In this document: piece after piece, positions 25,716-51,633 of the stretch
Layout: every line of letters begins with the position of its first letter
How positions within the stretch are numbered: the stretch's first letter is position 1
NCBI RefSeq assembly: GCF_041916975.1
Contig: NZ_JAYRYK010000001.1
Span: 1,006,270-1,070,269 of the forward strand
DNA: 64,000 bases
Source of the DNA: Sphingosinicella sp.
GTDB lineage: Bacteria > Pseudomonadota > Alphaproteobacteria > Sphingomonadales > Sphingomonadaceae
Direction: 5' to 3'
Position numbers and translations under genes: made by a program
Notes under the pieces: model-generated
Database searches by the model: none
Seen by the model: only the letters and a program-made list of their open reading frames with translations
Told to the model about the DNA's origin: nothing

Positions 25716-26300
25716 ATGGAACTGAACGGTGAGACCCTGATCGCGGCGCCGCGCGAACGGGTCTGGGCGGCGCTCAACAATCCCGACGTGCTCGCCGCCT
25801 GCATCGAGGGCGTGGAACGGCTTGAGCGCGCAGGGGAAAACCGCTTCGAAGGCACGATGAACGCCAAGGTCGGCCCGGTGCGCGCGAAGTTCACGGGCGC
25901 GGTAGAGCTGTCGGAAATCGATGCGCCGAACGCCTATGTGATCTCTGGTGAAGGCAAGGGCGGCGTCGCCGGTTTCGCGAAGGGCAAGGCCTCGGTGAGG
26001 CTAGAAGACGCGCCCGGCGGCACGCGACTCGCCTGGCAGGCGAGCTCCACCGTTGGCGGCAAGCTCGCGCAACTCGGGGCACGGCTGATTGAAGGCACTG
26101 CAAAGGCTTATGCGGAATCTTTCTTCGCCGCCTTCAAGGCACGGGTGGAAGGCGATGGCGCGGCAGAGCAAGAACCCGTGGTTCTTCCTGAAACCGATCT
26201 TTCCGAAGGCACTGATGAGACGCCCGGACTTTCCCCCGCCGTGTGGGGCGGCATCGTGATCGCGCTCGTCGCTGCGCTGGTGCTCTGGCTGGTGCTGTGA
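25716..26300 (+). CDS. CoxG-family SRPBCC protein with a C-terminal TM anchor
   Basis: RERVWAALNNPDVLAACIEG...VGPVRAKFTG...GKGG.AGFAKG...GGKLAQLG.RLI is the CoxG pattern. Confidence 0.8.
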   Translation: MELNGETLIAAPRERVWAALNNPDVLAACIEGVERLERAGENRFEGTMNAKVGPVRAKFTGAVELSEIDAPNAYVISGEGKGGVAGFAKGKASVRLEDAPGGTRLAWQASSTVGGKLAQLGARLIEGTAKAYAESFFAAFKARVEGDGAAEQEPVVLPETDLSEGTDETPGLSPAVWGGIVIALVAALVLWLVL

Positions 26301-27217
26301 ACGGAGACGACACCGCCGCGCTGATCGCCACGCTTCGCGGCTGGATTGCCGCCGGGCACAAGGCGGCGATCGCCACGGTGATCGAGACTTGGGGCTCCGC
26401 GCCGCGCCGCACGGGCGCGCATCTCCTGATTCGCGACGACGGGCTGTTCGAAGGCTCTGTGAGCGGCGGCTGCGTGGAGGGCGACGTGATCGCCGCGGCT
26501 GCGGACGTGATTGCGGTCAATGCACCGAAGCGCCTCGAATACGGCGTCGCCGATGCCCGCGCCTGGGAGGTCGGCCTTGCCTGCGGCGGCCGGATCGCGG
26601 TTCTGGTGCAGCCGGCGTCCGAAGCGGGCTTCGCGCCTGCCCTCGCCGAACGCCTCGGCAAGGCGCTCGCGGGCGGCGAGAGTGTGCGCGTCACCACCGA
26701 TGCGGACGGCGTTTCCCGCGAGGGTGAAGGCGAAGGTTTCTCGCGCCTTTATGAACCCGCGGGGCGGCTGATGATCGTCGGTGCGGTCCACATCGCGCAG
26801 GCACTCGTGCCGATGGCGGAACTGCTCGGTTACGTGCCGCTCGTCGTCGATCCGCGCGGCAGTTTCGCTGCGGCTGAACGCTTCTCGCACATCACCGTCG
26901 ATCCGCGCTGGCCCGACGAGGCGCTCGCCGACTGGAAGCCGGACGGCGCGAGCGCAGTCGTGGCGCTGACCCACGATTCCAAGCTCGACGACCCGGCGCT
27001 GATCGCGGCACTGAATTCGCCTGCTTTCTATATTGCCGCGCTGGGATCGCGGAAGAACCAGGCAATTCGCCGCGAACGCCTCGCCGCCGCCGGGTTCGAC
27101 GAGGCGGCGCTTGCCCGGGTCCAAGGCCCCGCCGGGCTTGCCATCGGCGCGGCGAACCCCGCCGAGATCGCGCTGTCGATCGCCGCACAGATGATCGCGG
27201 TACGGCGCGGCGCGTGA
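26297..27217 (+). CDS. XdhC/CoxI-family molybdoenzyme maturation protein
   Basis: AIATVIETWGSAPRRTGAHLLI...GSVSGGCVEG, second Rossmann-like half LMIVGAVHIAQAL...THD.KLDDPAL. The GTG start overlaps the coxG stop. Confidence 0.85.
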   Translation: MNGDDTAALIATLRGWIAAGHKAAIATVIETWGSAPRRTGAHLLIRDDGLFEGSVSGGCVEGDVIAAAADVIAVNAPKRLEYGVADARAWEVGLACGGRIAVLVQPASEAGFAPALAERLGKALAGGESVRVTTDADGVSREGEGEGFSRLYEPAGRLMIVGAVHIAQALVPMAELLGYVPLVVDPRGSFAAAERFSHITVDPRWPDEALADWKPDGASAVVALTHDSKLDDPALIAALNSPAFYIAALGSRKNQAIRRERLAAAGFDEAALARVQGPAGLAIGAANPAEIALSIAAQMIAVRRGA

Positions 27218-28791
27218 AGTTCGGCCCCGTCCCCCTCGATCGCGCAGAGGGCGCATACCTCGCCCACGCGGTCCAAACAGGCGCGCGGCGGATCGCCAAG
27301 GGTAAGCGCCTCGATGCGGCGGACATCGCCGATGCCCGCGCGGCGGGCCTTGCCGAAATCGTCGTGGCGGCGCTCGAAAGCGATGATCTGCACGAGGACG
27401 CCGCCGCCGCCCTGCTCGCGTCCGCCGCTGCGGGCCCCGGCCTCACCGCCCAGCCGCCCGCGCACGGCCGCGCCAACATCGTTGCTGACGCCCCCGGGCT
27501 GCTGCTCGTGGAAACCACGGCGATCGATACCGTAAACGCGCATGACGAAGCAGTGACGCTGGGAACGCTTGCTCCGTTCACCCCCGCCACGAAGGACGAG
27601 ATCGTCGCAACGGTGAAGATCATTCCCTTTGCCGTGCCGGAAACCCTCACCAGACGCGCGGCGGACAGCGCAAGAGGCGTGCTGCGGCTGGCACCGTTCG
27701 GCAGGCGCCGCGTCGCCTTCATCCAGACGACCCTGCCCGGCACATCCGCCAAGCTGCTTGCGAAGACCGCCGAGGTGACCGAGGCACGCTGCGCCGCGCT
27801 GGGTCTTGTCGCGTGGCGCGAGATGCGCTGCGCGCACACGGAAGAGGCCCTTATGGCCGTGCTCGCGGACGTCGCGGATGCCGACATCGTCCTCATCAGT
27901 GGCGCCTCTGCGATCAGCGACCGGCGCGACGTGATTCCCACCGCGATCGAACAGGCGGGCGGTGCGGTGCTGCGGCTCGGGATGCCGGTCGATCCCGGCA
28001 ATCTCCTGTGCCTCGCGCGCATCGGCACGCGGCCGGTAATCGGCCTTCCGGGCTGTGCGCGGAGCCCGCGACGCAATGGCTTCGACTGGGTTCTGGAACG
28101 GCTCTGGGCAGGTCTCGACGTGACCGGCGCGGATGTCGCCCGCATGGGTGCAGGCGGACTTCTCGCCGACGTCCCTCGCCCCGAACCGCGCCCGAAACCG
28201 GCAGCGGCCGGGCACGTCGGTGCCGTGGTGCTCGCGGCCGGGCGATCGGTGCGCATGGGCGCGAACAAGCTGCTCGCGGACCTCGGCGGCAAGCCGGTGC
28301 TCGCGCATGTGCTGGAAGCGGTGCGCGAAGCGGGGCTTCCCGCGATCGTCGTCACCGGCAACGCAGAAGCCGAGATCGCCGCGATGGCACGTGCCTTCGG
28401 CTTTCCGAGCGCCCATGCCGCGCGCTACGCAGACGGGCTCAGCCAGTCGGTCGCGGCGGGAATCGCCGCCGCGCACGATGACTGGTCGGCAGCGCTGGTG
28501 CTGCTCGGCGACATGCCGGGGATAAGCGCCGAGCATATCGCAAGCCTCGCCACCGCGGCGGACGCGAACCGCATCGCGGTGCCCGTGCACAACGGCAAGC
28601 GCGGGAACCCCGTCGCATGGGGCCGGCGCTATTTCGCGCGGCTGCGCGGTCTTGAGGGCGATGTCGGCGGCAAGGCCCTGCTCGCCGAATTCGCGGACGA
28701 CATCGTGGAGGTGCCGGTGGAAAGCGACGCGATCTTCATGGATGTGGATACGCCCGAAGCCCTTGCGGCAGTGCGGGCGCGCTACGCGTAA
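27214..28791 (+). CDS. Fusion of a MoeA/CinA-type molybdopterin-binding domain and a MocA/MobA-like nucleotidyltransferase
   Basis: The N-terminal ~340 aa have ISGASAISDRRDVIP...PGNLL..A.IG..PV.GLPGCARSP. The C-terminal ~190 aa have AVVLAAGRSVRMG.NKLLA, LGDMPG, NGKRGNPV. Confidence 0.8.
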   Translation: MKFGPVPLDRAEGAYLAHAVQTGARRIAKGKRLDAADIADARAAGLAEIVVAALESDDLHEDAAAALLASAAAGPGLTAQPPAHGRANIVADAPGLLLVETTAIDTVNAHDEAVTLGTLAPFTPATKDEIVATVKIIPFAVPETLTRRAADSARGVLRLAPFGRRRVAFIQTTLPGTSAKLLAKTAEVTEARCAALGLVAWREMRCAHTEEALMAVLADVADADIVLISGASAISDRRDVIPTAIEQAGGAVLRLGMPVDPGNLLCLARIGTRPVIGLPGCARSPRRNGFDWVLERLWAGLDVTGADVARMGAGGLLADVPRPEPRPKPAAAGHVGAVVLAAGRSVRMGANKLLADLGGKPVLAHVLEAVREAGLPAIVVTGNAEAEIAAMARAFGFPSAHAARYADGLSQSVAAGIAAAHDDWSAALVLLGDMPGISAEHIASLATAADANRIAVPVHNGKRGNPVAWGRRYFARLRGLEGDVGGKALLAEFADDIVEVPVESDAIFMDVDTPEALAAVRARYA

Positions 28792-29425: not shown

Positions 29426-31252
29426 ATGCCGCCGCCGCGCCGGGAAGAGCTGAGGAGGTTCGGGGACTTGCTGAATCGCACTTCGGATTCGAGCGCGCTT
29501 GCGCTGTCCGGCGCCGATGAAACGGCGCTGGCGCCAACGCCGACGCTCGACGATTTGCCGCGCCGTCTGGCGGATTTCAACACGCTTGGCGAAGCGCTGG
29601 ACTATGCGGCGCAGGGCAAGCGCGGCCTCAACTTCTTCGATGCGCGGGCACGCCTCGCGCGGGTTCTCACCTTCGCCGACCTCAAGGCCGATGCGACCGC
29701 GAACGCCTATCGGCTGATCGCCGCGGGTATCAAGCCGGGCGACCGCGTGGCGCTGATCGCCGAGACGAGCGCGGATTTCGTCAGCCTGTTCTTCGGCGCC
29801 ATATACGCTGGCGCCCTCCCCGTGCCGCTGCCGCTGCCGACCTCGTTCGGTGGACGCGAAGGCTATGTGGAGCAGATTCGCAGCCAGCTGATGTCGTGCG
29901 ACCCCGAGATCGCGCTTGCGCCTTCCGGCCTTGCCGCGATCGTTGCGGAAGCTGCGCACGGCCTGCGCTGCCGCACCGCGCACGACTGGCTCGATTTCAT
30001 GGCGCGCGACGCAAAGCCCGCCGCGCTGCCGTCCGCCCGCAAGAGCGACATCGCCTATCTCCAGTATTCGAGCGGCTCGACGCGCTTCCCGCACGGCGTG
30101 GAGATCACACATGAAGCGCTGCTCGCCAACCTCAACGGCCATGCCGTTGGCGTGAAACTGCAGCGCGACGACCGCGTCATTTCGTGGCTGCCTTATTATC
30201 ACGACATGGGCCTCGTCGGCTGCCTGATGGCGCCGATCGCGAACCAGGTTTCCGCCGACTACCTCGCCACCGAGGATTTCGCGCGCCGTCCGCTCTCGTG
30301 GCTCGCACTCATCACGCGCAACGAGGGCCACAGCCTCTCTTATTCGCCGACGTTCGGCTACGATATCTGCGCGCGGCGCGTTTCGAGCCAGACCGATGTT
30401 GCCGAGCGCTTCGACCTGTCGCGCTGGCGCGTGGCAGGCAACGGCGCCGACATGATCCGCCCGGACGTGATGAGCGCCTTCGTCGAGGCCTTCGCGCCTG
30501 CCGGCTTTTCTGGCGGGGCGTTCCTGCCGAGCTACGGGCTTGCCGAAGCGACGCTCGCCGTCACCATCTCGCCGCCGGGCACCGGCATCGTCACCGATCT
30601 CGTCGACGAACGCCTACTCTCGGGCGAGCGTGAAGACACGGGCACCGGCACGGGCCGGATGCGCGCGATTGTGAACTGCGGCGTTGCGCTGCCGGGCATG
30701 GAAATCGAAATCCGGGACGAATCGGGCCGCCGCCTCGGCGACCGCCAGATCGGCAAGGTGTTCGTGGCCGGCCCCAGCATCATGACCGGCTATTTCCGCG
30801 ACGAGATTTCGACCCGCGCCGCGCTTCAGGGCCAATGGCTCGATACCGGCGACATGGGCTACATGCTGGAGAGCGCGCTCTACATCGTCGGCCGCGCCAA
30901 GGACATGATCATCATCAACGGCAAGAACCACTGGCCGCAGGACATCGAGTGGGCGATCGAGCAGCTTCCAGGCTTCAAGGCGGGCGACATCGCCGCCTTC
31001 TCGATCACCACGGAGGGCGGCGAAGAGTCGCCCGCCGTGCTCGTCCAGTGCCGCACCAGCGATGCTGCCGAGAGGGCTGACCTCCGCGAGACGATCAAGG
31101 CCAAGGTACGCACCATCACGGGCATGAACTGCATCGTCGAACTGGTCCCGCCGCGCACGCTGCCGCGCACCAGCTCGGGCAAGCTCAGCCGCTCCAAGGC
31201 CCGGGCACTCTACCTCTCCGGCCAGATTCAACCGTTCGACATCGCGGCCTAG
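29426..31252 (+). CDS. Fatty acyl-AMP ligase / acyl-ACP synthetase-type adenylating enzyme
   Basis: DIAYLQYSSGSTRFPHGVEITHEALL (A3 motif), YGLAEATL, DTGDMGY, PRTSSGKLSRSKA (A10 motif). Lengths and motifs fit the FAAL type. Confidence 0.85.
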   Translation: MPPPRREELRRFGDLLNRTSDSSALALSGADETALAPTPTLDDLPRRLADFNTLGEALDYAAQGKRGLNFFDARARLARVLTFADLKADATANAYRLIAAGIKPGDRVALIAETSADFVSLFFGAIYAGALPVPLPLPTSFGGREGYVEQIRSQLMSCDPEIALAPSGLAAIVAEAAHGLRCRTAHDWLDFMARDAKPAALPSARKSDIAYLQYSSGSTRFPHGVEITHEALLANLNGHAVGVKLQRDDRVISWLPYYHDMGLVGCLMAPIANQVSADYLATEDFARRPLSWLALITRNEGHSLSYSPTFGYDICARRVSSQTDVAERFDLSRWRVAGNGADMIRPDVMSAFVEAFAPAGFSGGAFLPSYGLAEATLAVTISPPGTGIVTDLVDERLLSGEREDTGTGTGRMRAIVNCGVALPGMEIEIRDESGRRLGDRQIGKVFVAGPSIMTGYFRDEISTRAALQGQWLDTGDMGYMLESALYIVGRAKDMIIINGKNHWPQDIEWAIEQLPGFKAGDIAAFSITTEGGEESPAVLVQCRTSDAAERADLRETIKAKVRTITGMNCIVELVPPRTLPRTSSGKLSRSKARALYLSGQIQPFDIAA

Positions 31253-32244: not shown

Positions 32245-32493
32245 ATGGCGCACACCCGCGACACCATCCTTCCGAAGCTGATGGAACTGATCGAGCCGCT
32301 GAACCGCAAGGCGATCACGCTGGCCGAGAATACGAGCTTTTCGAGTGACCTCGAGCTGGACTCGCTGACCGTGATGGATCTCGTCGCCAACATCGAGGAT
32401 GAGTACGACATCATCCTGCCGATGAACCTGCTCCCCGAGCTGGAAACGATCGGTCAGCTCGCCGACGCCGTCACCAAGATCGTGAACGGCTGA
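32245..32493 (+). CDS. Acyl carrier protein (dedicated, Spt-associated)
   Basis: 82 aa. The phosphopantetheine attachment motif is DLELDSLTVMDLV. Confidence 0.85.
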   Translation: MAHTRDTILPKLMELIEPLNRKAITLAENTSFSSDLELDSLTVMDLVANIEDEYDIILPMNLLPELETIGQLADAVTKIVNG

Positions 32494-32501: not shown

Positions 32502-33710
32502 ATGGGCGACCTTTTCGACAAATTCGATCCCGTCATCGCCGAGAAGGCGGCGCTGCTGGCGACGGGCGTGAACGACCCGTTCAACCTCGTGATGGAGAAG
32601 GTCCACTCGCCGACCGAAGCGACGGTGAACGGGCGCGAGACGATCCTCGTCGGCACATACAACTACATGGGCATGACCTTCGACCCCGACGTGATCGCGG
32701 CGGGCAAGGAGGCACTCGACCAATACGGTGCGGGGACGACCGGCAGCCGGGTGCTGAACGGAACATATCAGGGCCACCGCGAGGTCGAGGAGGCGCTGAA
32801 GGATTTCTACGGCACCAGCCACGCCATGGTGTTTTCAACGGGTTACCAGGCGAACCTCGGCCTGATGGCGACGATGGCGGCGCGCGGGGAATACATCATC
32901 CTCGATGCCGACAGCCACGCCTCGATCTATGACGGCTGCGCGATGGGCAACGCGGACATCGTGCGCTTCCGCCACAACAGCGTGGAAGACCTTGACAAGC
33001 GTCTCGGTCGGTTGCCGGCGGAGGCGGGCAAGCTTGTCGTTCTTGAAGGCGTCTATTCGATGCTGGGCGACATCGCGCCGCTGAAAGAGATGGTCGCGGT
33101 CGCCAAGAAACATGGCGCAATGGTCGTGGTCGATGAAGCGCACGGCATGGGCTTCTTCGGCCCGAACGGACGCGGCGTCTATGAGGCCGCAGGCGTCGAG
33201 GCGGACGTCGACTTCGTCGTCGGCACCTTCTCGAAATCGGTGGGCACGGTCGGCGGCTTCGTCGTCTCCAACCACCCGAAGTTCGAGGTGCTGCGCCTCG
33301 TCTGCCGGCCTTACGTGTTCACCGCCTCGCTGCCGCCGAGCGTCGTTGCCACGGCGGCGACCTCGATCCGCAAGCTGAAGCACGCGCACAACAAGCGCCA
33401 GCATCTGTGGGAAAACAGCCGCAAGCTGCATTCCGGCCTCAAGGCCAAAGGCTTCAAGATCGCGACCGAGACCGCGGAAAGCGCGATCATCGCGGTGCTG
33501 ATGCCGGGCCAGGAAGCGTGCGCCCGCATGTGGAGCGCGCTCATCGAGCTTGGCGTCTACGTCAACATGGCGCGCCCGCCCGCGACACCGGCCGGCATGT
33601 TCCTGCTGCGCTGCTCGCTTTGCGCCGAACACCGCGCGGAGCAGGTCGACATCATCATCGACCGTTTCGTGAAGGCCGCTGAAATCGCCGGGATTCCGCT
33701 CGAAGCCTGA
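32502..33710 (+). CDS. spt: Serine palmitoyltransferase (alpha-oxoamine synthase family)
   Basis: 402 aa. TILVGTYNYMGMTFDPDVIAAGKEAL, FSTGYQANLG, ILDADSHASIYDG, VVVDEAHGMGFFG and GTFSKSVG (PLP lysine) closely follow the Sphingomonas Spt sequence as I remember it. Confidence 0.93.
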   Translation: MGDLFDKFDPVIAEKAALLATGVNDPFNLVMEKVHSPTEATVNGRETILVGTYNYMGMTFDPDVIAAGKEALDQYGAGTTGSRVLNGTYQGHREVEEALKDFYGTSHAMVFSTGYQANLGLMATMAARGEYIILDADSHASIYDGCAMGNADIVRFRHNSVEDLDKRLGRLPAEAGKLVVLEGVYSMLGDIAPLKEMVAVAKKHGAMVVVDEAHGMGFFGPNGRGVYEAAGVEADVDFVVGTFSKSVGTVGGFVVSNHPKFEVLRLVCRPYVFTASLPPSVVATAATSIRKLKHAHNKRQHLWENSRKLHSGLKAKGFKIATETAESAIIAVLMPGQEACARMWSALIELGVYVNMARPPATPAGMFLLRCSLCAEHRAEQVDIIIDRFVKAAEIAGIPLEA

Positions 33711-33711
33711 G

Positions 33712-34629
33712 CTAGCGCACCGCGCCCTTGCGGATCAGCTTCGGCAGCAACACCAGCCCGGCAAGGATCGGGAAGCGCCGGTGCCACGGCTTCACGACGA
33801 TACCCGCGCCCGCGTGGCGGTTCACCTTCCACGCGATGTAATCGACGCCGCCCTTGAAGGTGAAACTCGCCTTCGCCAGCCGCAGCACGGAGAGCACCTT
33901 GCCCCGGCGGCGTAGCTTGGCCCAGACGCGCTCGCCCGCGTGGCGATCAGCGTCGGCGCGGAAATGGACGACACCGCCGCGCACTTCCGCCGCGAGATCG
34001 CTGTCCGCGATGGCGGGCGCTGTGAACGCAGTGTAGCGCGCGGGATCGGTTTCGAAGATCGACTGGCCGCGCCCCGCACGCTCCGACCTGAGTTCGGAAG
34101 CGTAGGTGAGTGCGAAAGCGCCGGTCCACAGCGCCTCGACACTGAGATCATCGTCGAGCATCGGCCGCGCGGTCTTGAGCAGCGTCGGCGCTGCCGTCGC
34201 GACCGCGCGGATCACGCGGGCGCGGGCCGCATCGCCGCGCACCCACACGAGCCGCGAGGGCTGCGCGAAGCGCGCCCACACCGAAACGTTGTCGCAATCG
34301 GGCGAGCAGGCGTGCGCGAAGTCTTCAACCGTCATCACCGCGAACTTGGCGCGCAGCCCTTCGTGCTCCGCATAATAGACATTCGGCGGGATCAGGCGGT
34401 TGGCCGTCGCCATCCAGCGGCGCGTGTAGGCGCGTTCGTAGGAATCGACGAGCAGATAGAAATCGAGCAGCGAATCGCCGAGATCTTCGCTTCTGAGGCA
34501 CGAGCCGTAGAACAGCACCGCCTGCGCGGCGCCGCCGCAGCGCCCGGCGATCGCTTTGGCGAAATCGGCGACTTCGGGAGCGGCGGGCGTTTCCAGCTCG
34601 GCCGCAACGAGCGGCACGAGCGCCGTCAT
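33712..34629 (-). CDS. Uncharacterised protein with a Tam41/Mmp37-like nucleotidyltransferase pattern
   Basis: 305 aa. VLFYGSCLR...SLLDFYLLVD...NVYYAEHEGLRAKFAVMTVEDF...WARFAQPSRLV resembles the YGSG...IDFI...KYGV...GRlqKP layout of mitochondrial CDP-DAG synthase Tam41. Start overlaps the kinase stop (ATGA). Confidence 0.5.
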   Translation of the reverse strand: MTALVPLVAAELETPAAPEVADFAKAIAGRCGGAAQAVLFYGSCLRSEDLGDSLLDFYLLVDSYERAYTRRWMATANRLIPPNVYYAEHEGLRAKFAVMTVEDFAHACSPDCDNVSVWARFAQPSRLVWVRGDAARARVIRAVATAAPTLLKTARPMLDDDLSVEALWTGAFALTYASELRSERAGRGQSIFETDPARYTAFTAPAIADSDLAAEVRGGVVHFRADADRHAGERVWAKLRRRGKVLSVLRLAKASFTFKGGVDYIAWKVNRHAGAGIVVKPWHRRFPILAGLVLLPKLIRKGAVR

Positions 34630-35597
34630 GCTGCGAGGCTGAGGAAGGACACCGGCGCGGTGGGCGTCAGCACGATCGAACGCCCCTCGCCCGCTTCGTA
34701 AAGCTCGCCATCAAGGATCACGCTGGCGCGCTTGCCCTCGATACGGATTTCGTCGCCGCGCCGGAGGTGTAGCCCACTGAAGCGCGCGCTGCCAAGCCGC
34801 CCGGCGAGCGCGGACACCAGCGCCTTCAGCACCGTCGTGCGACGCTGCTCGATTGCCATCAGCTTCAGGGGACCGGCGCGGTCGCTGAACGGCGTGGCGA
34901 AATTGAGCAGCAAACGCTCGAGCGTCGTGACCATCAGCACGAGGAAACTGCCTTCGACCGGCACGCCATCGCGCTGCAGCGAGACACGCATCGGGCTTGG
35001 CCGCACCGGATTCCATCGCGCACCCGCGCCGACGAGCACGCTCGCGATGACCACGATCGTGGCGATCAGGTGGCTGACCCAGTTCGGCAGGCCGAGCGGG
35101 TAGATCTTGTTGCGGCAGAACAGGATCGCCTCGGCAAGGCCCGCGCCGCCAAGGAACATGCCGAACACCGGGCGCGCCGCGATACCGTCGCTGAGCGCGA
35201 TGAGCTGCCGCGCGACGACATGCGGATCAACGCCCGTCTCGACGATCTTGAGGATGTTCCCCAGCGCCTCGACCGGATTGGCACCCGCGCCGAGATCGAG
35301 CGCGATGAGGTTGGTCTTGCCGTTCGGCAGCACCGCAAGCGGCGGAACCGCGCCCTTGAAGTGATGGCCGTTGTAGATTTCGGTGAGCGCCGCCTGCACG
35401 GTGCCGTCGCCGCCGTTAATGACGAGCACGGCAGGCTTCACGCGCGCGATCATGGCAAGCGCGTCGGGCACTTCGGAGATATCCCCCACTTCGTAGTGGA
35501 AGATGTTCGGATGCTGCGCCACGAACTCCCGAATGCGCGGCAACGCGGCCTTGTTGCCGGTCGAGCGCGGATTGGAAAGGAGTGCGACGCAGGCCAT
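34626..35597 (-). CDS. Diacylglycerol-kinase-fold lipid kinase; candidate ceramide/sphingoid-base kinase
   Basis: DAGK catalytic-domain signature LVINGGDGTVQAAL, NPRS.G....., ~320 aa like YegS/LCB kinases. Sits between the DUF2141 and Tam41-like genes. Confidence 0.75.
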   Translation of the reverse strand: MACVALLSNPRSTGNKAALPRIREFVAQHPNIFHYEVGDISEVPDALAMIARVKPAVLVINGGDGTVQAALTEIYNGHHFKGAVPPLAVLPNGKTNLIALDLGAGANPVEALGNILKIVETGVDPHVVARQLIALSDGIAARPVFGMFLGGAGLAEAILFCRNKIYPLGLPNWVSHLIATIVVIASVLVGAGARWNPVRPSPMRVSLQRDGVPVEGSFLVLMVTTLERLLLNFATPFSDRAGPLKLMAIEQRRTTVLKALVSALAGRLGSARFSGLHLRRGDEIRIEGKRASVILDGELYEAGEGRSIVLTPTAPVSFLSLAA

Positions 35598-35598
35598 G

Positions 35599-36147
35599 TC
35601 AGTCGCGCCTTGCCACAAGGGGCTTCACGGTGAGCAGCCCCTGCCTGTAGTTCAGGATCACATCGACAACCGTGACGCCATCGCGCGCGACGAACATCGC
35701 GTCTTCATAATCGGGCTTCGACAGGCCGAGCTTCGGATTGCCCGAAAAGCCGACGCCATCCTTCGAAACCGAGAGCTTGCCGTTCATGTCGCGATCGTGA
35801 AGCACGGCCATCGAGAACTCGCCGAAGCGCGGCAGCACCATGCAGATATTCATGTCGCCGGACGCTGTCGTCGGGATTTCGATGCGCTTCAGCTTCTTGC
35901 CGGAAGCGAGAAATTCGTCGGGATTGTCGCTGTAGAGCTGAACCCGGAGATTGCCGCCGCGGTCCTTGAAGCCATAAATGCGCACAAGCGCGGCCGGGCC
36001 GCGCGCACCGGGCGCGCAGGCAGCAGCTTCGGGGCCGATGATCGTCTGGGCGGCGGCGGGCGCTGAAAACGCGCCGAGAACCACCGTCGTCGCGATCAGC
36101 GAACGGACAAGCCCCCGGAAAGACGCATTGGAACGCTTCAGCACCAT
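35599..36147 (-). CDS. DUF2141 domain protein (secreted)
   Basis: Signal peptide ...GAFSAPAAAQ, then LRVQLY...F........V.AVLHDRDMNGKLS....G.....GFSGNP, typical of DUF2141. GAGGAGG lies upstream of ATG 36147. Confidence 0.7.
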   Translation of the reverse strand: MVLKRSNASFRGLVRSLIATTVVLGAFSAPAAAQTIIGPEAAACAPGARGPAALVRIYGFKDRGGNLRVQLYSDNPDEFLASGKKLKRIEIPTTASGDMNICMVLPRFGEFSMAVLHDRDMNGKLSVSKDGVGFSGNPKLGLSKPDYEDAMFVARDGVTVVDVILNYRQGLLTVKPLVARRD

Positions 36148-36264
36148 GAACCTCCTCGACCTTCCCCCTTCTCGAATCACCAAATAGTTGATGCATCGCT
36201 GCTCTCCCGTGGTATCGGGTCCGCTTGCGGCCAAAATTTGACCAAGGATCGACAAAACCAAGAG

Positions 36265-37488
36265 ATGCTGGCCCGGTTCGACAGGTACATGGCGCGGCTG
36301 ATCGCGGTGCCGCTGTTCGCGACACTGATGATCGCGGCCATGCTGCTATTGCTGGAGAAGATGCTGAAATTGTTCGACTTCGTGGTGAACGAAGGCGGGC
36401 CCGCATCGGTCGTCTGGCGTATGCTCGGCAACCTTATTCCGCAGTATCTTGGGCTTGGAATCCCCGTTGGCCTTCTTCTTGGCATATTGCTCGCTTTCCG
36501 GAATCTGGCGCTTTCGAGCGAACTCGATGCGCTGCGCGCCGTGGGAATCAGCTACATGCGGATGCTGCGCGTACCCTACATGTATGCGCTGCTGCTCGGT
36601 CTCCTGACGCTGCTCATCGTCGGTTTCATCCAACCGATCAGCCGCTATGCCTATGAAGGCCTGGAGTTCGAGCTGCGCTCTGGCGCGCTCGGCGCCACCA
36701 TCGATGTGGGCGAGTTCGTGCAGGTGGCGCGCAATACCACGCTCCGCGTCGAGGAAAGCCGCAATCATGGCCGCGACCTGCGCGGCATCTTCGTCAGCGG
36801 CCAGAGCGCCGACGGCAAGACCGTTTCCGTCACCGCCGCGCGGGGTACGTTCCTCGCCACCGATGACCCGGACGTGATCCTGCTGCGGCTCACCGACGGC
36901 ACGCTCGTGCACGACGCGCCCGGCTACAAGCAGCCGCGCGTGCTCACCTTCCGTATGCACGACCTGCCGATCGACCTGCCGCAAATCGAGCTGTTCCGCA
37001 TTCGCGGCGCCGAAGCCGACGACAACGAGCTGACGCTGCCCGAGCTCTACCGTGTCGGCTATCTCGGCCAGGGCACCACGACCGAGGAGAACCGGCACGC
37101 CGTGCGCGCGAACCTGCACCGGCGGCTGGTGCAGGTGTTCGCGGTGATGGTGATCCCGCTGCTCGCGGTGGCGCTCGCGGTGCCGCCGAAGCGATCAACC
37201 TCTGCGGTCGGCGTGTTCGCCGCGCTCACCATCCTCATCGTCTACAACGAGATTTCAGAGGCCGCCGAGCGATCCGGCGCGGCAGGGAAAGCCGATATCG
37301 TGCTCAGCCAGTGGGGCAGTTTCATCGCGTTCAGCCTGCTCTGCGCGTGGTTCTTCCATGTGCTCGCGAACGTACCGGGCGGCCAGCCGATCGCGATGAT
37401 CGAACGTGGCGCGGGCATCGTCACCAAGTGGATCGTCAGCCTGTGGCGCCTGATCCGCCGCCGCTTCGGAAAAGCGCAGACCGCATGA
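36265..37488 (+). CDS. lptF: LPS-export ABC permease LptF homologue
   Basis: MLARFDRYMARL..., LPQYLGLGIPVGLLLGILLAF..L..SSELDALRAVGIS, large periplasmic insert, C-terminal TM bundle. Confidence 0.85.
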   Translation: MLARFDRYMARLIAVPLFATLMIAAMLLLLEKMLKLFDFVVNEGGPASVVWRMLGNLIPQYLGLGIPVGLLLGILLAFRNLALSSELDALRAVGISYMRMLRVPYMYALLLGLLTLLIVGFIQPISRYAYEGLEFELRSGALGATIDVGEFVQVARNTTLRVEESRNHGRDLRGIFVSGQSADGKTVSVTAARGTFLATDDPDVILLRLTDGTLVHDAPGYKQPRVLTFRMHDLPIDLPQIELFRIRGAEADDNELTLPELYRVGYLGQGTTTEENRHAVRANLHRRLVQVFAVMVIPLLAVALAVPPKRSTSAVGVFAALTILIVYNEISEAAERSGAAGKADIVLSQWGSFIAFSLLCAWFFHVLANVPGGQPIAMIERGAGIVTKWIVSLWRLIRRRFGKAQTA

Positions 37489-38588
37489 GCAGCGCGCTCT
37501 CGCTCTGGCCCTCGCCGACCATCGCGACCTACACGGCGCGCCTGTTCATGATGCGCACGCTTGCGTTCGCGATCGGCCTCGTCGCCATATTGCAGACGCT
37601 CGACCTGCTCACCGAATCGAACAAGATCCTGGCCATCGACGGCAACGGCAACGCCGAGCTGCTGCGCTACGTGCAGCTTCGCATTCCGCAGCTGATCTCG
37701 CAGTTTCTGCCCTTTTCCGTGCTGCTCGGCGCGCTGGTGACGATGGCGACGCTGAGCCAGAACAGCGAAGTGACGATCTTCCGCGCCGCCGGGCTTTCCG
37801 CGCACCAGATCCTCTACCCGATGATGGCCGCGGCGCTCGGCGTTTCGCTGTTTCACTTCGCGTTCAACGAGATGGTGCTGGTGCGGACGAATGCCGAACT
37901 CATCGCGTGGGAGAAGGCCGAATACCGGCGCGATGCGGAAATCGACACGAATCCGCTCACCGACGTGTGGGTGCGCGAGGGGCGCGAGATCATCCATGCC
38001 GACAGCGTGACCGGAAACGGCGCGGCGACGGTGCTGCACGGCGTGCGCGTCGACCGCCGCGACGGCAGCCGCCTGCGCCAGATCATCAACGCGCAAAGCG
38101 GTCGCCCGGACGGCAACGCCTGGCTGCTGAACGACGTCCGCATCTTCACGGTGCGCACCGGCGCGCTCTCCCGCGTACCGGAAATCCGGCTCGGCACGGG
38201 TATCGAGCCCGACCGCTTCACGATGCGCGCGCCCGATCCGGACCGGACGAACATCGCCGATCTCTGGAAGCAGACACGGCTTCTGGAATCGGTGGGGCGC
38301 GGCACGGATTCGCTGCGCGTCGCGCTCTATCACAAGGTTTCGCTGCCGCTTTCGGCCGTGCTGATGCCGTTGCTCGGCGCGGTGACGGCGTTCGGCCTTG
38401 CCCGATCGGGCAAGCTCTTCGCGCGCGCCGTCGTCGGCATGGCGCTCGGCTTTGCGTATTTCGTCGCCGACAATTTCATGGTGGCGATGGGCGAGTTCGG
38501 CTCCGTACCGCCGTGGGCGGCGGGCTGGGCGCCGTTCCTTCTGTTCTTCCTCGTCGGCGAAGCCGTGTTGTTCAGGACTGAAGAATGA
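37485..38588 (+). CDS. lptG: LPS-export ABC permease LptG homologue
   Basis: Start overlaps the lptF stop (ATGA). IATYTARLFMMRTL..., RIPQLISQFLPFSVLLGALVTM..LSQNSEVTIFRAAGLS. Confidence 0.85.
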   Translation: MSSALSLWPSPTIATYTARLFMMRTLAFAIGLVAILQTLDLLTESNKILAIDGNGNAELLRYVQLRIPQLISQFLPFSVLLGALVTMATLSQNSEVTIFRAAGLSAHQILYPMMAAALGVSLFHFAFNEMVLVRTNAELIAWEKAEYRRDAEIDTNPLTDVWVREGREIIHADSVTGNGAATVLHGVRVDRRDGSRLRQIINAQSGRPDGNAWLLNDVRIFTVRTGALSRVPEIRLGTGIEPDRFTMRAPDPDRTNIADLWKQTRLLESVGRGTDSLRVALYHKVSLPLSAVLMPLLGAVTAFGLARSGKLFARAVVGMALGFAYFVADNFMVAMGEFGSVPPWAAGWAPFLLFFLVGEAVLFRTEE

Positions 38589-40123
38589 CAGGCGTCGATG
38601 CTTCGGGGCCAAAGGGAATCAGCAAAAAAACAGTCGTGAAAAGTGCGGGCGTCGTGGCAATGGCCCGGCTCGGCGCACTGATCGAAGCGGTTGCGCAGCC
38701 GGCGTACATATGGATGTTCGGCCTCGCCACTTACGGCATCTACATGGCGCTGTGGGCGGCAGTGAACATGGTGTCGAACATCGCGGACCTTGCGATGACC
38801 AGCGCAATGCAGCGCGCCATTCCACAGGCCCGAAGCGAAGAACGTGCGCACAGCGCCCTCAAGACCGCGCTCGTACTCGGCATGGTGCCGAGCATCGTCA
38901 TCGCGCTCATCGTCAGCCTCTTCACGGCACCCGTCGCCGCGATGTTCAACGCCGCTCCGAAGGACAGGGCATCGCTTGAACTGGCTGTCGCCATATTTGC
39001 CTGGGCACTGCCGCTGTGGACCTTCGTCGAACTTGCAACCTCGGCGTCACGGGCGCGCAAGGCCTTCGGACCGGAAGTCCGCCTCAGAATCTTCTGGGAG
39101 CAGATCGTTCGCCTGCTGATGGCAGGTGTCGCATGGCTTGCAGGGTGGATGACGATGGGCCTGATCGTGGCCCATCTCGCGTCGCTCGCCATCACCGCCG
39201 CGCTCGGCTGGCGGCTGCTTAGCCGCTACTATGACGTGCGCCTGCTGATCCGCGCCCCGTTCGACGCGGAGGTCCTGCGCGATCTCCTCGGCACCGGGAT
39301 CGGCATTCTGCCGGCCAATATCGCGGCGCGTGCCTTTTCGGACTTACCTCCGCTCGCCCTCAACATGATGCTGCCGGGTGCGGCGGGTGCCAGTGCGGCG
39401 GGTCTCTTCGGTATCGCACGGAAGATCGCGTCGATCCCGCTCATCGTGCGACACAGCCTGCACTACGTCATTCAGCCGCTGGCCGCCGAACAGGCGATGC
39501 ACGACAAGCAGCGGATCAACCCCGTCTACGGCTTCGCCTCGCGCCTTTCGATGATTCTGCTGCTGCCGATGTCTCTCCTTCTGGCGCTTCTGGCGGAGCC
39601 GATCCTGCTGCTTTTCCCGCGCGAGGCGGCTGCCGCAGCGCCTCTCGTGGTGGTGCTGACGCTTGCGCGCGGCATCAATTCGATTGCGGGGCCGGCAAAC
39701 GGTATCCTGCAAATGATCCGGCCCCGATACCTGCCTACGGCGAACGCTGCACTCGGCATTGCAGTGTGGGTTCTCGTCACGTGGCGGCTTCCCACCGACA
39801 ATGTCGCACTTGCCATGGCCTGGGGGGTGGCTTGCGGCGTCTTCGTGATGGAGTGGCTGGCGCTCGCCGAGCTTTGGCACACCGACCGCATCCATCCGTT
39901 CGGAACCCCGTTCGGGCGTGGTCTCGCGATCCTCGGGGGTGCTTCCCTGCTCATCTGGGCGGCGCTGGGCAGCCACAGGCCTTTCCCCTTGTGGCTCGAC
40001 ATCGCCTTGCCTATCGCTTCGGCAGTGCTTTTGGTCTGGCTAGGCCTCCGCTTCGCTCTCACGGCGCGGGAGCGGCAAAGCCTTGGCCCGATCGGGAAGC
40101 GACTGGGGTTATCGGGGGCCTAG
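38585..40123 (+). CDS. MOP-superfamily (Wzx/PST-type) polysaccharide/lipid-linked glycan flippase
   Basis: 512 aa with ~12-14 TM helices. N-terminal pattern AMARLGALIEAV.QP.Y..MFG...YG.Y. Start overlaps the lptG stop (ATGA). Confidence 0.7.
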   Translation: MTGVDASGPKGISKKTVVKSAGVVAMARLGALIEAVAQPAYIWMFGLATYGIYMALWAAVNMVSNIADLAMTSAMQRAIPQARSEERAHSALKTALVLGMVPSIVIALIVSLFTAPVAAMFNAAPKDRASLELAVAIFAWALPLWTFVELATSASRARKAFGPEVRLRIFWEQIVRLLMAGVAWLAGWMTMGLIVAHLASLAITAALGWRLLSRYYDVRLLIRAPFDAEVLRDLLGTGIGILPANIAARAFSDLPPLALNMMLPGAAGASAAGLFGIARKIASIPLIVRHSLHYVIQPLAAEQAMHDKQRINPVYGFASRLSMILLLPMSLLLALLAEPILLLFPREAAAAAPLVVVLTLARGINSIAGPANGILQMIRPRYLPTANAALGIAVWVLVTWRLPTDNVALAMAWGVACGVFVMEWLALAELWHTDRIHPFGTPFGRGLAILGGASLLIWAALGSHRPFPLWLDIALPIASAVLLVWLGLRFALTARERQSLGPIGKRLGLSGA

Positions 40124-40135: not shown

Positions 40136-41257
40136 ATGAGCCGCAAACGTGTCGCGTTCCTGTTCGTCGGCGGCGCCCATCAGGTGCTCCACAGCGCATC
40201 CGTCGCAGCGGAACTGGGGTGCAACCCGCGCTTCGACGTGACCTGCTTCGTTGCCCAAGCCGATGAACGAGAGATGCTGCAACAGGTCGCGCGGGCGTGG
40301 CCGGAGTCCAGTCTTACCATCGCCGATCTCTCCGTGCCTTTGTGGTCCTCGCTCATCGGACGGCTGTGGCCGAAGTTCCGCGCCCTGAAACTTCCGCGCC
40401 TGTTGGCGAACCGGAAGCGCTTTTCCACCTTCGACGCCCTCGTCCTCACCGAGCGGACCTCGACGATCCTGAAGATGCTGCCCGGCTGCCCTCCGCTGAT
40501 CCACATCCCGCACGGCGCCGGAGACCGGGCGCGCGGTTTCGAACCGAGGCTGCGGCGGTTCGACCTCGTAATCGTCTCCGGCGAAAAGGACGCGCACCGG
40601 ATGACGTCGGAAGGGCTTGTCGAGACGTCGCGTATAGCGGTTTCCGGGTCGACGAAGCTCGATGCGCTCGATCGGCTCAGCGTGGGTCGCCCCCGCCTGT
40701 TCGGCAATGACAGGCCCGTGGTGCTCTACAATCCCCATTTCGAAGCCGCCCTCAGCTCATGGCCGCGCTGGGGCAAGCAGATCATCGACGCCTTCGCGGC
40801 GCAATCGGATTTCAACCTGATTGTCGCGCCGCATATCCGCCTCTTCGAAGGCGCCTCTGCGGCCCAGCGTGAAGCCTTCGAGGCGTGTGCCGTACAGGAT
40901 CGTATCATCGTCGATGCCGGTTCGGTCCGCTCGTGCGACATGACTTACACCAACGCCGCCGACATCTACCTCGGCGATGTCAGCAGCCAGGTTTACGAGT
41001 TCCTCGCCCGTCCGCGACCTTGCGTGTTCCTCGACAGCACAGGGGCGGACTGGAAGGACAACCCGAACTATGCCTTCTGGCATTTCGGCGAGGTTATAAC
41101 GGACGTATCCGAGGTTCTGCCCGCCACCCACCGCGCACCTGCCGCGCATCCGGCCTTCCTCGAAACGCAGGAGGCGGCGGTCTCCGCCGCCGTCGGCGGA
41201 GAGTGGCGCGGCGCATCGCAAAGGGCGGCGGCAGCGATCGCGAACTTTCTCGGGTAA
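40136..41257 (+). CDS. TagB/TagF-like (CDP-glycerol glycerophosphotransferase family) transferase
   Basis: 373 aa. LIHIPHGAGDR...., VVLYNPHF, NLIVAPH and ADIYLGDVSSQVYEFL..PRPCVFL follow the HG / YaPTfR / kxHp / DySS..fDf layout of the family. Confidence 0.55.
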   Translation: MSRKRVAFLFVGGAHQVLHSASVAAELGCNPRFDVTCFVAQADEREMLQQVARAWPESSLTIADLSVPLWSSLIGRLWPKFRALKLPRLLANRKRFSTFDALVLTERTSTILKMLPGCPPLIHIPHGAGDRARGFEPRLRRFDLVIVSGEKDAHRMTSEGLVETSRIAVSGSTKLDALDRLSVGRPRLFGNDRPVVLYNPHFEAALSSWPRWGKQIIDAFAAQSDFNLIVAPHIRLFEGASAAQREAFEACAVQDRIIVDAGSVRSCDMTYTNAADIYLGDVSSQVYEFLARPRPCVFLDSTGADWKDNPNYAFWHFGEVITDVSEVLPATHRAPAAHPAFLETQEAAVSAAVGGEWRGASQRAAAAIANFLG

Positions 41258-41369
41258 GTCGGTCGCGGCGCGCTGGCAACGATCACAATACTGTCCTAAA
41301 TATGCCGCATTGCCGCGAAATAGAGGCATCCTGGATGCGGCTGGACCGCACGATTTGCAGGATCAGAAT

Positions 41370-42143
41370 ATGCAGCTTCTGAAGGGCTATCGGCTTGGGA
41401 TGTGGAGCAAGAGCCACAACCTGTCGAAGATGACGTTCCGCGAACTCGTCGTCGCCTATTTCCAGTATTACGCGATTCAGGCGTATCTGCTGCTGACGGT
41501 GGCATCGCTCTATGTGGCGTGGGCCCACCCGACGACGCTTCTGCGCGGCGCGGCGGCAGCGGCGATTGCCATCGCGGCCTATCCGCTGGCGTGGTTCCTG
41601 CTGCACCGCTACGTGCTCCACAGCCGCTGGATGTTCAAATCGCCGCTGACGGCGCGGACTTGGAAGCGCATCCACTACGATCACCACCAGGATCCGAACC
41701 ACCTCGAGGTGCTGTTCGGCGCGCTCTACACGACGCTGCCAACCATCGCGATCGTCACCATCCCCGTCGGTTACGCGATCGGCGGCATCGGCGGCGCGGC
41801 GTGGGGTTTCGGCGCGGGACTGCTCACCACCTGCTTCTATGAGTTCTGCCACTGCATCCAGCATCTCTCCTACAAGCCGCGCTCGCCGTGGCTCGTGGAA
41901 ATGAAGACGCGCCACATGGAACACCACTTCCATGATGAAGACGGCAACTTCGGCATCACCAACTTCGTGTGGGACAAGCTGTTCGGCACCTACTACCAGC
42001 GCGGCGAGCGCCCGGAGAAGAGCGAGACGGTGTTCAACCTCGGCTACACGACCGAGGCTGCCGAGAAATGGCCATGGGTCGCGAAAATGTCCGGCGGCGT
42101 CGCCGAAGGGCATCCGCGCCAGCGCATGAAAAAAGCGGCCTAA
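41370..42143 (+). CDS. Fatty-acid hydroxylase / sterol-desaturase-family di-iron membrane enzyme
   Basis: Histidine boxes HRYVLH, HYDHHQDPNH, HCIQH and HMEHHFH. AGGA lies 7 nt upstream of ATG 41370. An alternative TTG 41310 is possible. Confidence 0.8.
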   Translation: MQLLKGYRLGMWSKSHNLSKMTFRELVVAYFQYYAIQAYLLLTVASLYVAWAHPTTLLRGAAAAAIAIAAYPLAWFLLHRYVLHSRWMFKSPLTARTWKRIHYDHHQDPNHLEVLFGALYTTLPTIAIVTIPVGYAIGGIGGAAWGFGAGLLTTCFYEFCHCIQHLSYKPRSPWLVEMKTRHMEHHFHDEDGNFGITNFVWDKLFGTYYQRGERPEKSETVFNLGYTTEAAEKWPWVAKMSGGVAEGHPRQRMKKAA

Positions 42144-42151: not shown

Positions 42152-43297
42152 ATGGGGGGCAGCATCGACATCCGGCCGGTCGTGAGCACGGCCGACCGCA
42201 AGACGTTCATCGACCTGCTGTGGACACTCTACGCGAACGACCCCAACTGGGTGCCGCCGCTGAAATCAGAAGTTGCCGGGCTTATCGGCGGTGCAAAGAG
42301 CAATCCGTGGTTCGAGCACGCCGAAGCCGCGTTCTGGCTCGCCTACAAGGACGGTAAGCCGGTCGGGCGCATATCCGCGCAGGTCGACCAGCTCGTTCTC
42401 CAGCACATGGGCGCGGGCACCGGGCAATTCGGCATGTTCGAGTGCATCGACGATGCCGATGTCGCGAACGCGCTTCTGGACACGGCGGAAGCCTGGCTGA
42501 AAGCAAAGGGCATGACACGGTCGCTTGGACCGATCAGCCTGTCGATCTGGGACGAGCCCGGCCTCCTCGTCAGTGGCTTCGAACTGCCACCAACAGTGAT
42601 GATGGGGCACCACCTGCCCTATTACGAAGCGCTGATCGAAGGCCGCGGCTACGCCGGCGTGAAGGATCTGCACACCTACGAACTGCCGATCGCGACCGGC
42701 TTCCCGCCTGCGTTCAATCGGATCGTTGCAGCCGCCGAGAAATCCAGCCGCATCCGTATGCGCAATGTCGACAAGTCGCGTTTCGATGCCGAGGCCGCGC
42801 TGATTCTCGACATCCTGAACGATGCCTGGTCCGACAACTGGGGCTTCATCCCGCTTACCCCTTCGGAAGTGGCGTATGTCGGCAAGAAGCTGAAGCCGAT
42901 CGTCTTCGAAGACCTGATTCGCATCTGCGAGGTGGACGGCGAACCGGTGGCCTTCATGATCACGCTACCGGACGTCAACGAGATGACCGCCGATCTCGAC
43001 GGCAAGCTGCTACCGTTCGGCTGGGCGAAGCTGCTGTGGCGTCTGCGCGCGCCGAAGGTGCGCCGGATGCGCGTGCCGCTGATGGGCGTGCGCAAATCGA
43101 TGCAGGGCAGCCGCCTCGCCAGCTTCATGGCGCTGATGATGGTGGAGCACATCCGCCGCGCCGCCGTGAGCGTCTACGGCGCGACGCAGGGCGAACTGGG
43201 CTGGGTGCTGGACGACAACGGCCCGATGAAATCGATCGCCGAGATCATCGAATCGAAGATCACCAAGACGTACCGGGTCTACGAAAAGGCTCTCTAA
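42152..43297 (+). CDS. GNAT-like acyltransferase of the bacterial ceramide synthase (bCerS) type
   Basis: 381 aa. N-terminal IRPVVSTADRKTFIDLLWTLYANDPNWVPPL, central GFIPLTPSEV. This type of protein is often mis-annotated as dATP pyrophosphohydrolase in sphingolipid loci. Confidence 0.6.
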   Translation: MGGSIDIRPVVSTADRKTFIDLLWTLYANDPNWVPPLKSEVAGLIGGAKSNPWFEHAEAAFWLAYKDGKPVGRISAQVDQLVLQHMGAGTGQFGMFECIDDADVANALLDTAEAWLKAKGMTRSLGPISLSIWDEPGLLVSGFELPPTVMMGHHLPYYEALIEGRGYAGVKDLHTYELPIATGFPPAFNRIVAAAEKSSRIRMRNVDKSRFDAEAALILDILNDAWSDNWGFIPLTPSEVAYVGKKLKPIVFEDLIRICEVDGEPVAFMITLPDVNEMTADLDGKLLPFGWAKLLWRLRAPKVRRMRVPLMGVRKSMQGSRLASFMALMMVEHIRRAAVSVYGATQGELGWVLDDNGPMKSIAEIIESKITKTYRVYEKAL

Positions 43298-50530: not shown

Positions 50531-50553
50531 AAATTTCCCCTCGGACTCTGGCT

Positions 50554-50694: not shown

Positions 50695-50763
50695 GGCCGT
50701 TGGCTCCTGGTTGTGAAGGCTATGCCCCTGCCCGCCCACGCACAAGGCGGCGAAGGCGGACCG

Positions 50764-51558: not shown

Positions 51559-51633
51559 GTGTTCGTCTGCCTCCTCGAAACCCGGACCACCCCCGAATGG
51601 TGGCCGCCCCACGCGAAAGTGGCGGCAAGCATT

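Follow-up and report, generated by a model that had tools for sequence, protein, structure and literature searches.

A probable cpgB-cpgC operon in Sphingosinicella sp. and a candidate Tam41-like step in ceramide head-group synthesis

The attachment of anionic head groups to ceramide by bacteria is only partly solved. In Caulobacter, the genes concerned run from spt, which encodes serine palmitoyltransferase, in the order cpgC (CC_1161), cpgB (CC_1160, ceramide kinase), and cpgA (CC_1159). A cpgB deletion is without ceramide-1-phosphate (C1P), ceramide phosphoglycerate (CPG), and CPG2, and a cpgC deletion retains C1P and is without CPG (PMC9393093), this Caulobacter genetics being the one source from which the need for CpgC is known. 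Deletion of cpgA (PMC9393093) or of cpgD costs only CPG2, and CpgD makes cytidine diphosphate (CDP)-glycerate. Of the route from C1P to CPG, it is the step taken by CpgC whose chemistry is still described as unidentified; in 2024, Olea-Ozuna et al. noted a Tam41 domain (IPR015222) in CC_1161 and proposed that ceramide activated with a nucleoside diphosphate (NDP) is formed from C1P (PMC11324152). Here, we describe a three-gene operon of Sphingosinicella sp., within a window of 64,000 nucleotides (nt), or 64 kb, of contig NZ_JAYRYK010000001.1 (positions 1,006,270 to 1,070,269), that carries very probable orthologs of cpgC and cpgB behind a gene for a secreted DUF2141 protein.

Anionic sphingolipids can replace lipopolysaccharide in Caulobacter and are a polymyxin/colistin target there. 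In our reading, the operon is the form that the cpg module, which supplies bacterial sphingolipids with their head groups, takes in Sphingosinicella, with CpgC making CDP-ceramide, and we put the probability of this reading at roughly 0.6. The genes are new members of the known families cpgB and cpgC, and the locus opens no new question. It lends the published NDP-ceramide hypothesis computational support through Tam41 homology at the level of fold and profile with invariant residues, a natural fusion of the kinase to CpgC, and a predicted basic, membrane-binding tail, and it draws attention to DUF2141, a member of the operon that is conserved in Sphingomonadales and undiscussed in the literature.

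The operon and its orthology to cpgB and cpgC

The three genes lie on the minus strand and converge on spt. Coordinates are positions within the window, which has a G+C content of ~66%.

33712..34629, minus strand: probable cpgC ortholog, 305 amino acids (aa); P. luteola FOB45_16340 match, AlphaFold2 and Foldseek, family profile
34626..35597, minus strand: probable cpgB ortholog, a DAGK-fold lipid (predicted ceramide) kinase, 323 aa; PF00781, FOB45_16335 match
35599..36147, minus strand: secreted DUF2141 protein, 182 aa, the first gene of the operon; PF09912, signal peptide
32502..33710, plus strand: spt (serine palmitoyltransferase), which converges with cpgC; NCBIfam SerpalmtaseAlphaP at 759 bits, the cut-off being 670

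The link to Caulobacter was made through the P. luteola orthologs in Table S2F of PMC11324152, where FOB45_16340 (QEU29244.1) is the ortholog of CC_1161 and FOB45_16335 that of CC_1160. Using tblastn, the cpgC open reading frame (ORF) was matched by FOB45_16340 over its full length, with 35.4% of residues identical in a 319-aa alignment (E 2.6e-58). The kinase was matched by FOB45_16335, with 27.6% identical across 315 of its 323 aa (E 3.5e-25). QEU29244.1 was also recovered in the profile search, as P0288 in cluster P0224, and its contig reads aasR-HIT-cerS-CC_1153-cpgD-lptF2-lptG2-cpgA-cpgB-cpgC, as published. The 305-aa ORF thus combines full-length homology to the published CC_1161 ortholog with adjacency to a kinase and to spt, and the kinase combines homology to the published CC_1160 ortholog with a DAGK domain that contains GGDG (INGGDGT; PF00781 DAGK_cat, 6.5e-13). 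From these comparisons, we consider it very probable that the two genes are the cpgC and cpgB orthologs. The P. luteola proteins AasR, CerS, and LptG2 also matched the window, and those of cpgA, cpgD, CC_1153, and HIT found no match in its 64 kb (tblastn). In the tables for S. wittichii and Z. mobilis (PMC11324152), cpgC and cpgB are followed by one unlisted locus tag (Swit_3904 and ZMO1392) and then by lptF2; by its position, this tag is probably the DUF2141 gene.

Ceramide kinase activity of CpgB has been demonstrated in vitro, biochemically only for the Caulobacter enzyme, and its GGDG ATP motif is reported to be important (PMC10331486). That enzyme phosphorylates diacylglycerol (DAG) too in vitro, and levels of phosphatidate (PA) are unchanged in a cpgB deletion (PMC10331486).

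The original prediction, made from the sequence alone, described tight packing of the three genes, with a 1-nt gap and then an ATGA overlap, and both junctions were verified by position. The DUF2141 gene starts at ATG 36147, preceded by a GAGGAGG ribosome-binding site, and its stop (35599-35601) is followed after one base by the kinase ATG at 35597, which reads MACVALL; the ORF-list start of the kinase at TTG 35618 is too long, and the true start was placed at ATG 35597. An ATGA at 34626-34629 is common to the kinase stop and the cpgC start. At the other end of the operon, the TGA stop of spt (33708-33710) and the reverse-complement stop of cpgC (33712-33714) are separated by the single base 33711, and no terminator-like site was found in 33400-36500, as claimed for the interval between the two stops, nor any sigma-70-like promoter site. 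The sole inverted repeat at this junction is a 9-nt palindrome that spans both stops. The gene assignments were borne out as well: the middle gene has the GGDGT signature of DAG kinases and is CpgB-type by its FOB45_16335 match, and the first encodes a secreted DUF2141 protein (PF09912, 1.1e-18, plus signal peptide). The translational coupling implied by the 1-nt gap and the ATGA overlap suggests that DUF2141, kinase, and cpgC would be co-expressed.

Conservation was counted over the 80 most similar genomic loci, which are the closest relatives, nearly all Sphingomonadales, and phylogenetically non-independent. Of 73 loci, 57 have the kinase gene immediately upstream of cpgC in the same orientation; DUF2141 stands before the kinase in 49 of 55 (Sphingomonadales), and lptF2 and lptG2 both follow in all of the 52. 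In 50 of 55 loci, no more than 10 kb separates spt from cpgC, so that the expectation that these genes co-occur with spt in other genomes was confirmed across related loci. The 1-nt abutment is not conserved, and the gap between cpgC and spt in other loci measures 8 to 5668 nt. In S. xenopeptidilytica, the closest named relative (98% identical in the 305-aa ORF), a 263-aa ORF stands between cpgC and spt (L001:10961-11752); because this ORF is missing from the window, the two stops here are 1 nt apart. The gap between cpgC and spt is a variable insertion site. In Sphingobium (L025:9977-14323 and about 15 other Sphingobium-type loci), cpgC and spt are ~2.1 kb apart, the interval being occupied by a histidine kinase gene, and no lipid kinase, DUF2141, or lptF2/lptG2 gene was found within 10 kb of cpgC. 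The pairing of cpgB and cpgC is therefore broken in Sphingobium.

A natural CpgB::CpgC fusion is present in a metagenomic protein of 662 aa (P0240; L081:3135-6378). The N-terminal half of P0240 covers the window kinase over its full length, in an end-to-end alignment (27% identity, E 1e-26), and residues 355-660 of P0240 are CpgC-like. The fusion gene comes directly after a gene for a 412-aa cpgA-like CDP-alcohol phosphotransferase (CDP-OH_P_transf). Such a fusion argues for consecutive action of the kinase and CpgC on the same lipid. It also bears on the view that the three genes are chance neighbours with no common pathway, for which one could cite the abutment with spt, a strain-level indel, and the Sphingobium loci, where cpgC is near spt with neither kinase nor DUF2141. 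Translational coupling, a gene order conserved across Sphingomonadales, the fusion, and published genetics (PMC9393093) all speak against chance, which is left with next to no probability and is effectively refuted for the pair of kinase and CpgC.

Remote likeness of CpgC to Tam41

The motifs that had led to the reading of the 305-aa protein as a Tam41/Mmp37 nucleotidyltransferase (NTase) are all present in its translation. Searched alone, the ORF gave no Pfam or NCBIfam match, PF09139 (Tam41) included, even at E<=10, so that the predicted match to this family did not materialize, and a narrow profile (24 sequences, 55-79% identity) found no match among PDB sequences at E<=10. An AlphaFold2 model of the protein was then compared with the PDB (predicted local distance difference test [pLDDT] score, 86.1; predicted template modelling [pTM] score, 0.85). 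The top four Foldseek matches of this predicted model were SpTam41 (6ig2, 6ig4), with E of 1.9e-7 to 1.4e-6, probability of 1.0, and template modelling scores of 0.50-0.54 over 268-284 columns. Generic NTases came next in the list, at E>=1.5e-3. Identity to Tam41 was ~13% in the Foldseek alignment.

Sequence likeness emerged at the level of the family. A profile of 126 diverse representatives (A4), 33-53% identical to the 305-aa ORF, matched SpTam41 (6ig2_A) at E 3.3e-5 and 26.4 bits, with positions 90-225 corresponding to Tam41 137-272. The aligned motifs are listed below, with the CpgC family first and SpTam41 second.

raKYAVlS and IIKYGVTS
ylWARFaQPv and YLAGRFQKPV
tYraELR..aE and SYLGDIRMSFAAE
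YGSc...lDlY and YGSG...IDFI (N-terminal, weakly aligned)

The third of these includes F240A, an A/F difference between two deposited Tam41 chains. Residues G42, D56, P82, K95, R120, Q123, E179, R181, E183, Y264, and K268 are invariant in the CpgC family, and G42, D56, K95, R120, E179, R181, and E183 fall in the aligned Tam41 motifs as identities or conservative changes; catalytic roles of residues were inferred from the alignment together with secondary sources. Across the 126 sequences, D56 (in LLDFY) is the sole invariant acidic residue in the region of the hG[GS]...D motif, and Tam41 has one of the three canonical NTase carboxylates (PMC11646218). Among Pfam families, PF09139 is also the one that the members match most frequently, with 25 of the 126 reaching it at E<=1, and one of them (P0173) scored 34.3 bits, above the gathering cut-off of 24 bits. 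P0173 matched SpTam41 6ig2 at E 3.7e-6 and the Firmicutes Tam41 7ecd at 0.015.

The C-terminal 77 residues of the 305-aa protein (229-305) have a net charge of +17, against -7 for the remainder, and sequence analysis found no transmembrane helix in the protein. Tam41 has a basic C-terminal membrane helix (PMC7018664), and the basic C-terminal third of the window protein, judged by its residues, appears to resemble this membrane anchor. Three independent lines, namely fold, family profile, and the PF09139 matches of family members, thus uphold the Tam41/Mmp37 layout as a remote likeness, whereas the single-sequence Pfam search does not. The sequence and model comparisons point to a divergent relative of the Tam41 superfamily that is not a PF09139 member by the Pfam threshold.

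A Firmicutes-bacterium Tam41 makes CDP-DAG (PMC11646218), and the 305-aa protein could accordingly be imagined as a second, Tam41-type CDP-diacylglycerol synthase that acts on PA and is unrelated to sphingolipids. The UniRef names of some family members (“Phosphatidate cytidylyltransferase” and “Matrix Mmp37”) and the phosphorylation of DAG by CpgB in vitro (PMC10331486) would suit such a role. The setting of the gene would not, with cpgC near spt and beside a ceramide kinase at the frequencies given above, nor would the Caulobacter cpgC deletion, which loses CPG specifically while C1P stays (PMC9393093). PA is unchanged in the cpgB deletion (PMC10331486), and the CpgC family is far from true Tam41, at 13% identity and with most members under the Pfam threshold. 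We regard a second CDP-DAG synthase as highly improbable.

CDP-ceramide as the proposed product of CpgC

Given its remote homology to Tam41, CpgC would most likely convert cytidine triphosphate (CTP) and C1P to CDP-ceramide and pyrophosphate, by analogy with the conversion of PA to CDP-diacylglycerol. CpgC would do this on the cytoplasmic side of the inner membrane, to which its basic C-terminal region would hold it, and a further transferase would displace cytidine monophosphate from CDP-ceramide with a head-group alcohol. On the strength of this analogy, we see the CDP-ceramide chemistry of CpgC, taken by itself, as evenly poised. A wider proposal, in which CDP-ceramide is the activated donor used universally for the head groups of bacterial phosphosphingolipids and DUF2141 stands in the cpgA slot of Sphingomonadales, falls slightly short of an even chance. 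If true, CDP-ceramide would be a liponucleotide never observed in any organism.

Several points weigh against a cpg module in which CpgC makes CDP-ceramide. The ORF is silent in single-sequence Pfam searches and shares ~13% identity with Tam41, and the locus counts come from closely related, non-independent genomes. The window kinase is only 27.6% identical to the P. luteola CpgB ortholog, the reported identity of such orthologs to the characterised Caulobacter enzyme being 25-30%. Proteins CpgA and CpgD found no counterpart in the window. We know of no enzyme that consumes CDP-ceramide. CpgA, which belongs to the CDP-alcohol phosphotransferase family and is the obvious consumer candidate, is dispensable for CPG in Caulobacter (PMC9393093). 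The Klein lab called the mechanism of CpgC unidentified in 2025 and in May 2026, and no nucleotide or lipid substrate has been reported for any CpgC. Finally, the exact term “CDP-ceramide” was not found in a literature search that covered roughly 8 million papers. To that extent, the statement in the original prediction that an activated ceramide had not been described in bacteria holds, but the idea of CDP- or NDP-ceramide is not new, having been published in 2024 as a hypothesis (PMC11324152).

Alternatively, CpgC might use its NTase fold on the other partner, nucleotidylating glycerate or phosphoglycerate, or it might directly join C1P to an activated glycerate, with no CDP-ceramide in either case. 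Zik et al. drew CpgC as an enzyme that “adds glycerate to ceramide phosphate” (PMC9393093), the soluble CDP-glycerate made by CpgD is a precedent for head-group activation already in the pathway, and no consumer of CDP-ceramide has been identified in the literature. Tam41, however, is the closest structural and sequence relative of CpgC and acts on a lipid phosphate. CPG is kept in a cpgD deletion, so that CDP-glycerate is unneeded for the first addition, and direct addition of glycerate to C1P would be energetically unfavourable according to Olea-Ozuna et al. (PMC11324152). The basic C-terminal region of CpgC and the fusion to a lipid kinase fit a membrane-lipid substrate handed over from CpgB. 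Activation of the glycerate side is therefore, in our view, unlikely, though a serious contender, and we retain CDP-ceramide as the preferred product.

The surrounding ceramide locus and comparison with known systems

The operon sits inside a complete bacterial ceramide synthesis and export locus. Upstream of spt, the plus strand carries aasR, cerR, and acpR; divergent from the DUF2141 gene, it carries lptF2, lptG2, and genes for a flippase-like protein, a TagF-family protein, a fatty-acid hydroxylase, and bCerS.

29426..31252 (start approximate), plus strand: aasR-type fatty acyl-AMP/acyl carrier protein ligase; NCBIfam NF006624, 854 bits
31266..32174, plus strand: cerR-type short-chain dehydrogenase/reductase; PF01370 8.6e-26; placed like CC_1164
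32245..32493, plus strand: acpR, specialised acyl carrier protein; PF00550 2.6e-11; placed like Caulobacter CC_1163
36238..37488, plus strand: lptF2-like permease, divergent from the DUF2141 operon; PF03739 2.9e-56
37485..38588, plus strand: lptG2-like permease, ATGA overlap with lptF2; PF03739 3e-72; start inferred from translation
38585..40123, plus strand: polysaccharide-flippase-like membrane protein, CC_1166 type; PF13440 9e-12, PF01943 7.5e-7
40136..41257, plus strand: TagF-family (CDP-glycerol glycerophosphotransferase-like) protein, CC_1167 ortholog, 373 aa; homolog comparison
41310..42143, plus strand: fatty acid hydroxylase family protein; PF04116 2.7e-20
42152..43297, plus strand: bCerS-type ceramide synthase; 46% identity, E 7.7e-105, to P. 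luteola cerS (CC_1154 ortholog)

Some starts in the ORF list were revised. Those of lptG2 and bCerS are too long; lptG2 most likely begins at ATG 37485, within an ATGA that also contains the stop of lptF2, and bCerS at ATG 42152, just past the hydroxylase stop. The aasR ORF is listed from 29063 and probably starts near 29426-29519; its 46.5% identity to P. luteola aasR runs from window position 29519 (tblastn). The hydroxylase, whose gene (41310-42143) is flanked by bCerS and the TagF-like gene, may act on the acyl chain of ceramide, a hydroxylation reportedly carried out in Caulobacter by an unlinked DesA-family gene, CC_0202. At 26243-28791, an XdhC-family gene is followed by one for a 525-aa protein with MoCF_biosynth and MobA-like NTP_transf_3 domains. 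This MobA-like NTP_transf_3 protein (27214-28791) was considered as CC_1153 or CpgD and rejected, as it has no tblastn similarity to the P. luteola counterparts, and since it adjoins XdhC, it was read as a molybdenum-cofactor gene outside the cpg pathway. Elsewhere in the window (49784-51612), a general-stress-response regulatory pair consists of a protein with NepR and sigma-70 r2/r4 domains (EcfG-like) and, beside it, a PhyR-type response regulator.

The TagF-like enzyme, 4 kb from the operon, had been put forward as the user of CDP-ceramide, transferring ceramide-phosphate to an acceptor alcohol. The 373-aa ORF, a CC_1167 ortholog of the PF04464/TagF family, shares 52% identity with P0499, its counterpart in Caulobacter segnis, TagF enzymes use CDP-activated donors, CC_1167 mutants have a cofitness of 0.57 with spt and 0.54 with cpgA, and Z. 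mobilis accumulates ceramide-phosphoglycerol (PMC11324152). The protein's own PF04464 match, however, reached 10.1 bits (E 0.37), below the cut-off of 22.1, and ~20 of the 120 closest homologs listed carry a precomputed PF04464 match, which makes it a divergent member at best. The clusters of N. eutropha, A. vinelandii, and P. luteola have cpgA, cpgB, and cpgC and no ortholog of CC_1167; given this absence from beta- and gamma-proteobacterial cpg clusters, the family is not the general partner. Only a handful of the 80 loci have a tagF-like gene at a distance of up to 10 kb from cpgC, and CC_1167 is judged by Olea-Ozuna et al. to have probably no relation to the synthesis of phosphosphingolipids (PMC11324152). 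This part of the original prediction proved weak, and we judge it improbable. Conservation of the TagF-like protein (52%) is far above that of CpgC (about 35-39%) or CpgB (about 25-28%).

The DUF2141 protein scored 67.7 bits against PF09912 (gathering cut-off, 24.4), a domain carried by 120 of 120 homologs among the matches listed. Its signal peptide ends AAA-Q, and its AlphaFold2 model is a beta-sandwich (pLDDT 85.8) for which Foldseek found no PDB match below E 1e-2, only generic beta-sandwich matches at E>=0.011. A role as an LptC2 substitute by fold was considered and dropped, there being no LptA/LptC-like Foldseek match. H117-D118-R119, D130-G131, F134-S135, K144-P145, and C102 are invariant and C44 nearly so, giving a sharply conserved signature, HDR(D/N)...DG.GFS.N...KP, and by sequence C44 and C102 are a probable disulfide pair. 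As to context, the literature offers a single lead: paralogs of DUF2141 adjoin the carotenoid hydroxylase gene crtG in Sphingomonadales, so that the family is found with membrane-lipid genes a second time. In Sphingomonadales, DUF2141 holds the operon slot directly upstream of cpgB, where other lineages carry cpgA. As a periplasmic beta-sandwich protein, it might take over the completed lipid in the periplasm and work there together with the LptF2/LptG2 exporter encoded next to it, a lipid-handling role that we consider doubtful. That the Sphingomonadales pathway ends in a different head group, or needs a periplasmic handling step in which DUF2141 takes part, seems at best equally doubtful.

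Overall, the window locus matches the CC_1168-CC_1152 region of Caulobacter described by Olea-Ozuna et al. in 2024 (PMC11324152). The 305-aa ORF is of the same family as Caulobacter CpgC (CC_1161/CCNA_01219), to which it is linked through the P. luteola ortholog, and like it is the last gene of its operon, after the ceramide kinase and converging on spt; an identity of ~35-39% is expected between them across lineages. CC_1161 carries the Tam41/Mmp37 signature IPR015222 (PMC11324152), whereas the window ORF shares it as a remote likeness only. The window kinase resembles Caulobacter CpgB (CC_1160/CCNA_01218) in having DAGK_cat with GGDG and in lying directly upstream of cpgC. It differs in having one hydrophobic segment, residues 174-192, which is strongly hydrophobic, whereas Caulobacter CpgB was purified as a soluble protein (PMC10331486). 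Furthermore, the window operon opens with DUF2141 and that of Caulobacter with cpgA, and unlike Caulobacter, the window has no cpgA, cpgD, CC_1153, or HIT gene.

Two described cytidylyltransferases frame the proposed reaction. CpgD (CC_1152), a CTP:phosphoglycerate cytidylyltransferase with no match in the window, provides CTP-dependent activation in the same pathway, as CpgC is proposed to do, but its fold (IMPCT/GlmU-like NTP_transferase) is unrelated to that of CpgC, its substrate is soluble, and it serves only the second phosphoglycerate. Tam41/TAMM41 (PF09139), a CDP-diacylglycerol synthase of mitochondria and Firmicutes, is like the window protein in its NTase domain plus helical/winged-helix domain, as predicted for the latter, and in the motifs YGS...D, KY(G/A)V, RFxxP, and Y..(D/E)(I/L)R...E, with a single acidic residue in the NTase motif. 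The two differ in context, which is glycerophospholipid for Tam41 and sphingolipid for the window gene, and in acceptor, which is phosphatidate for Tam41 and presumably ceramide-1-phosphate for CpgC.

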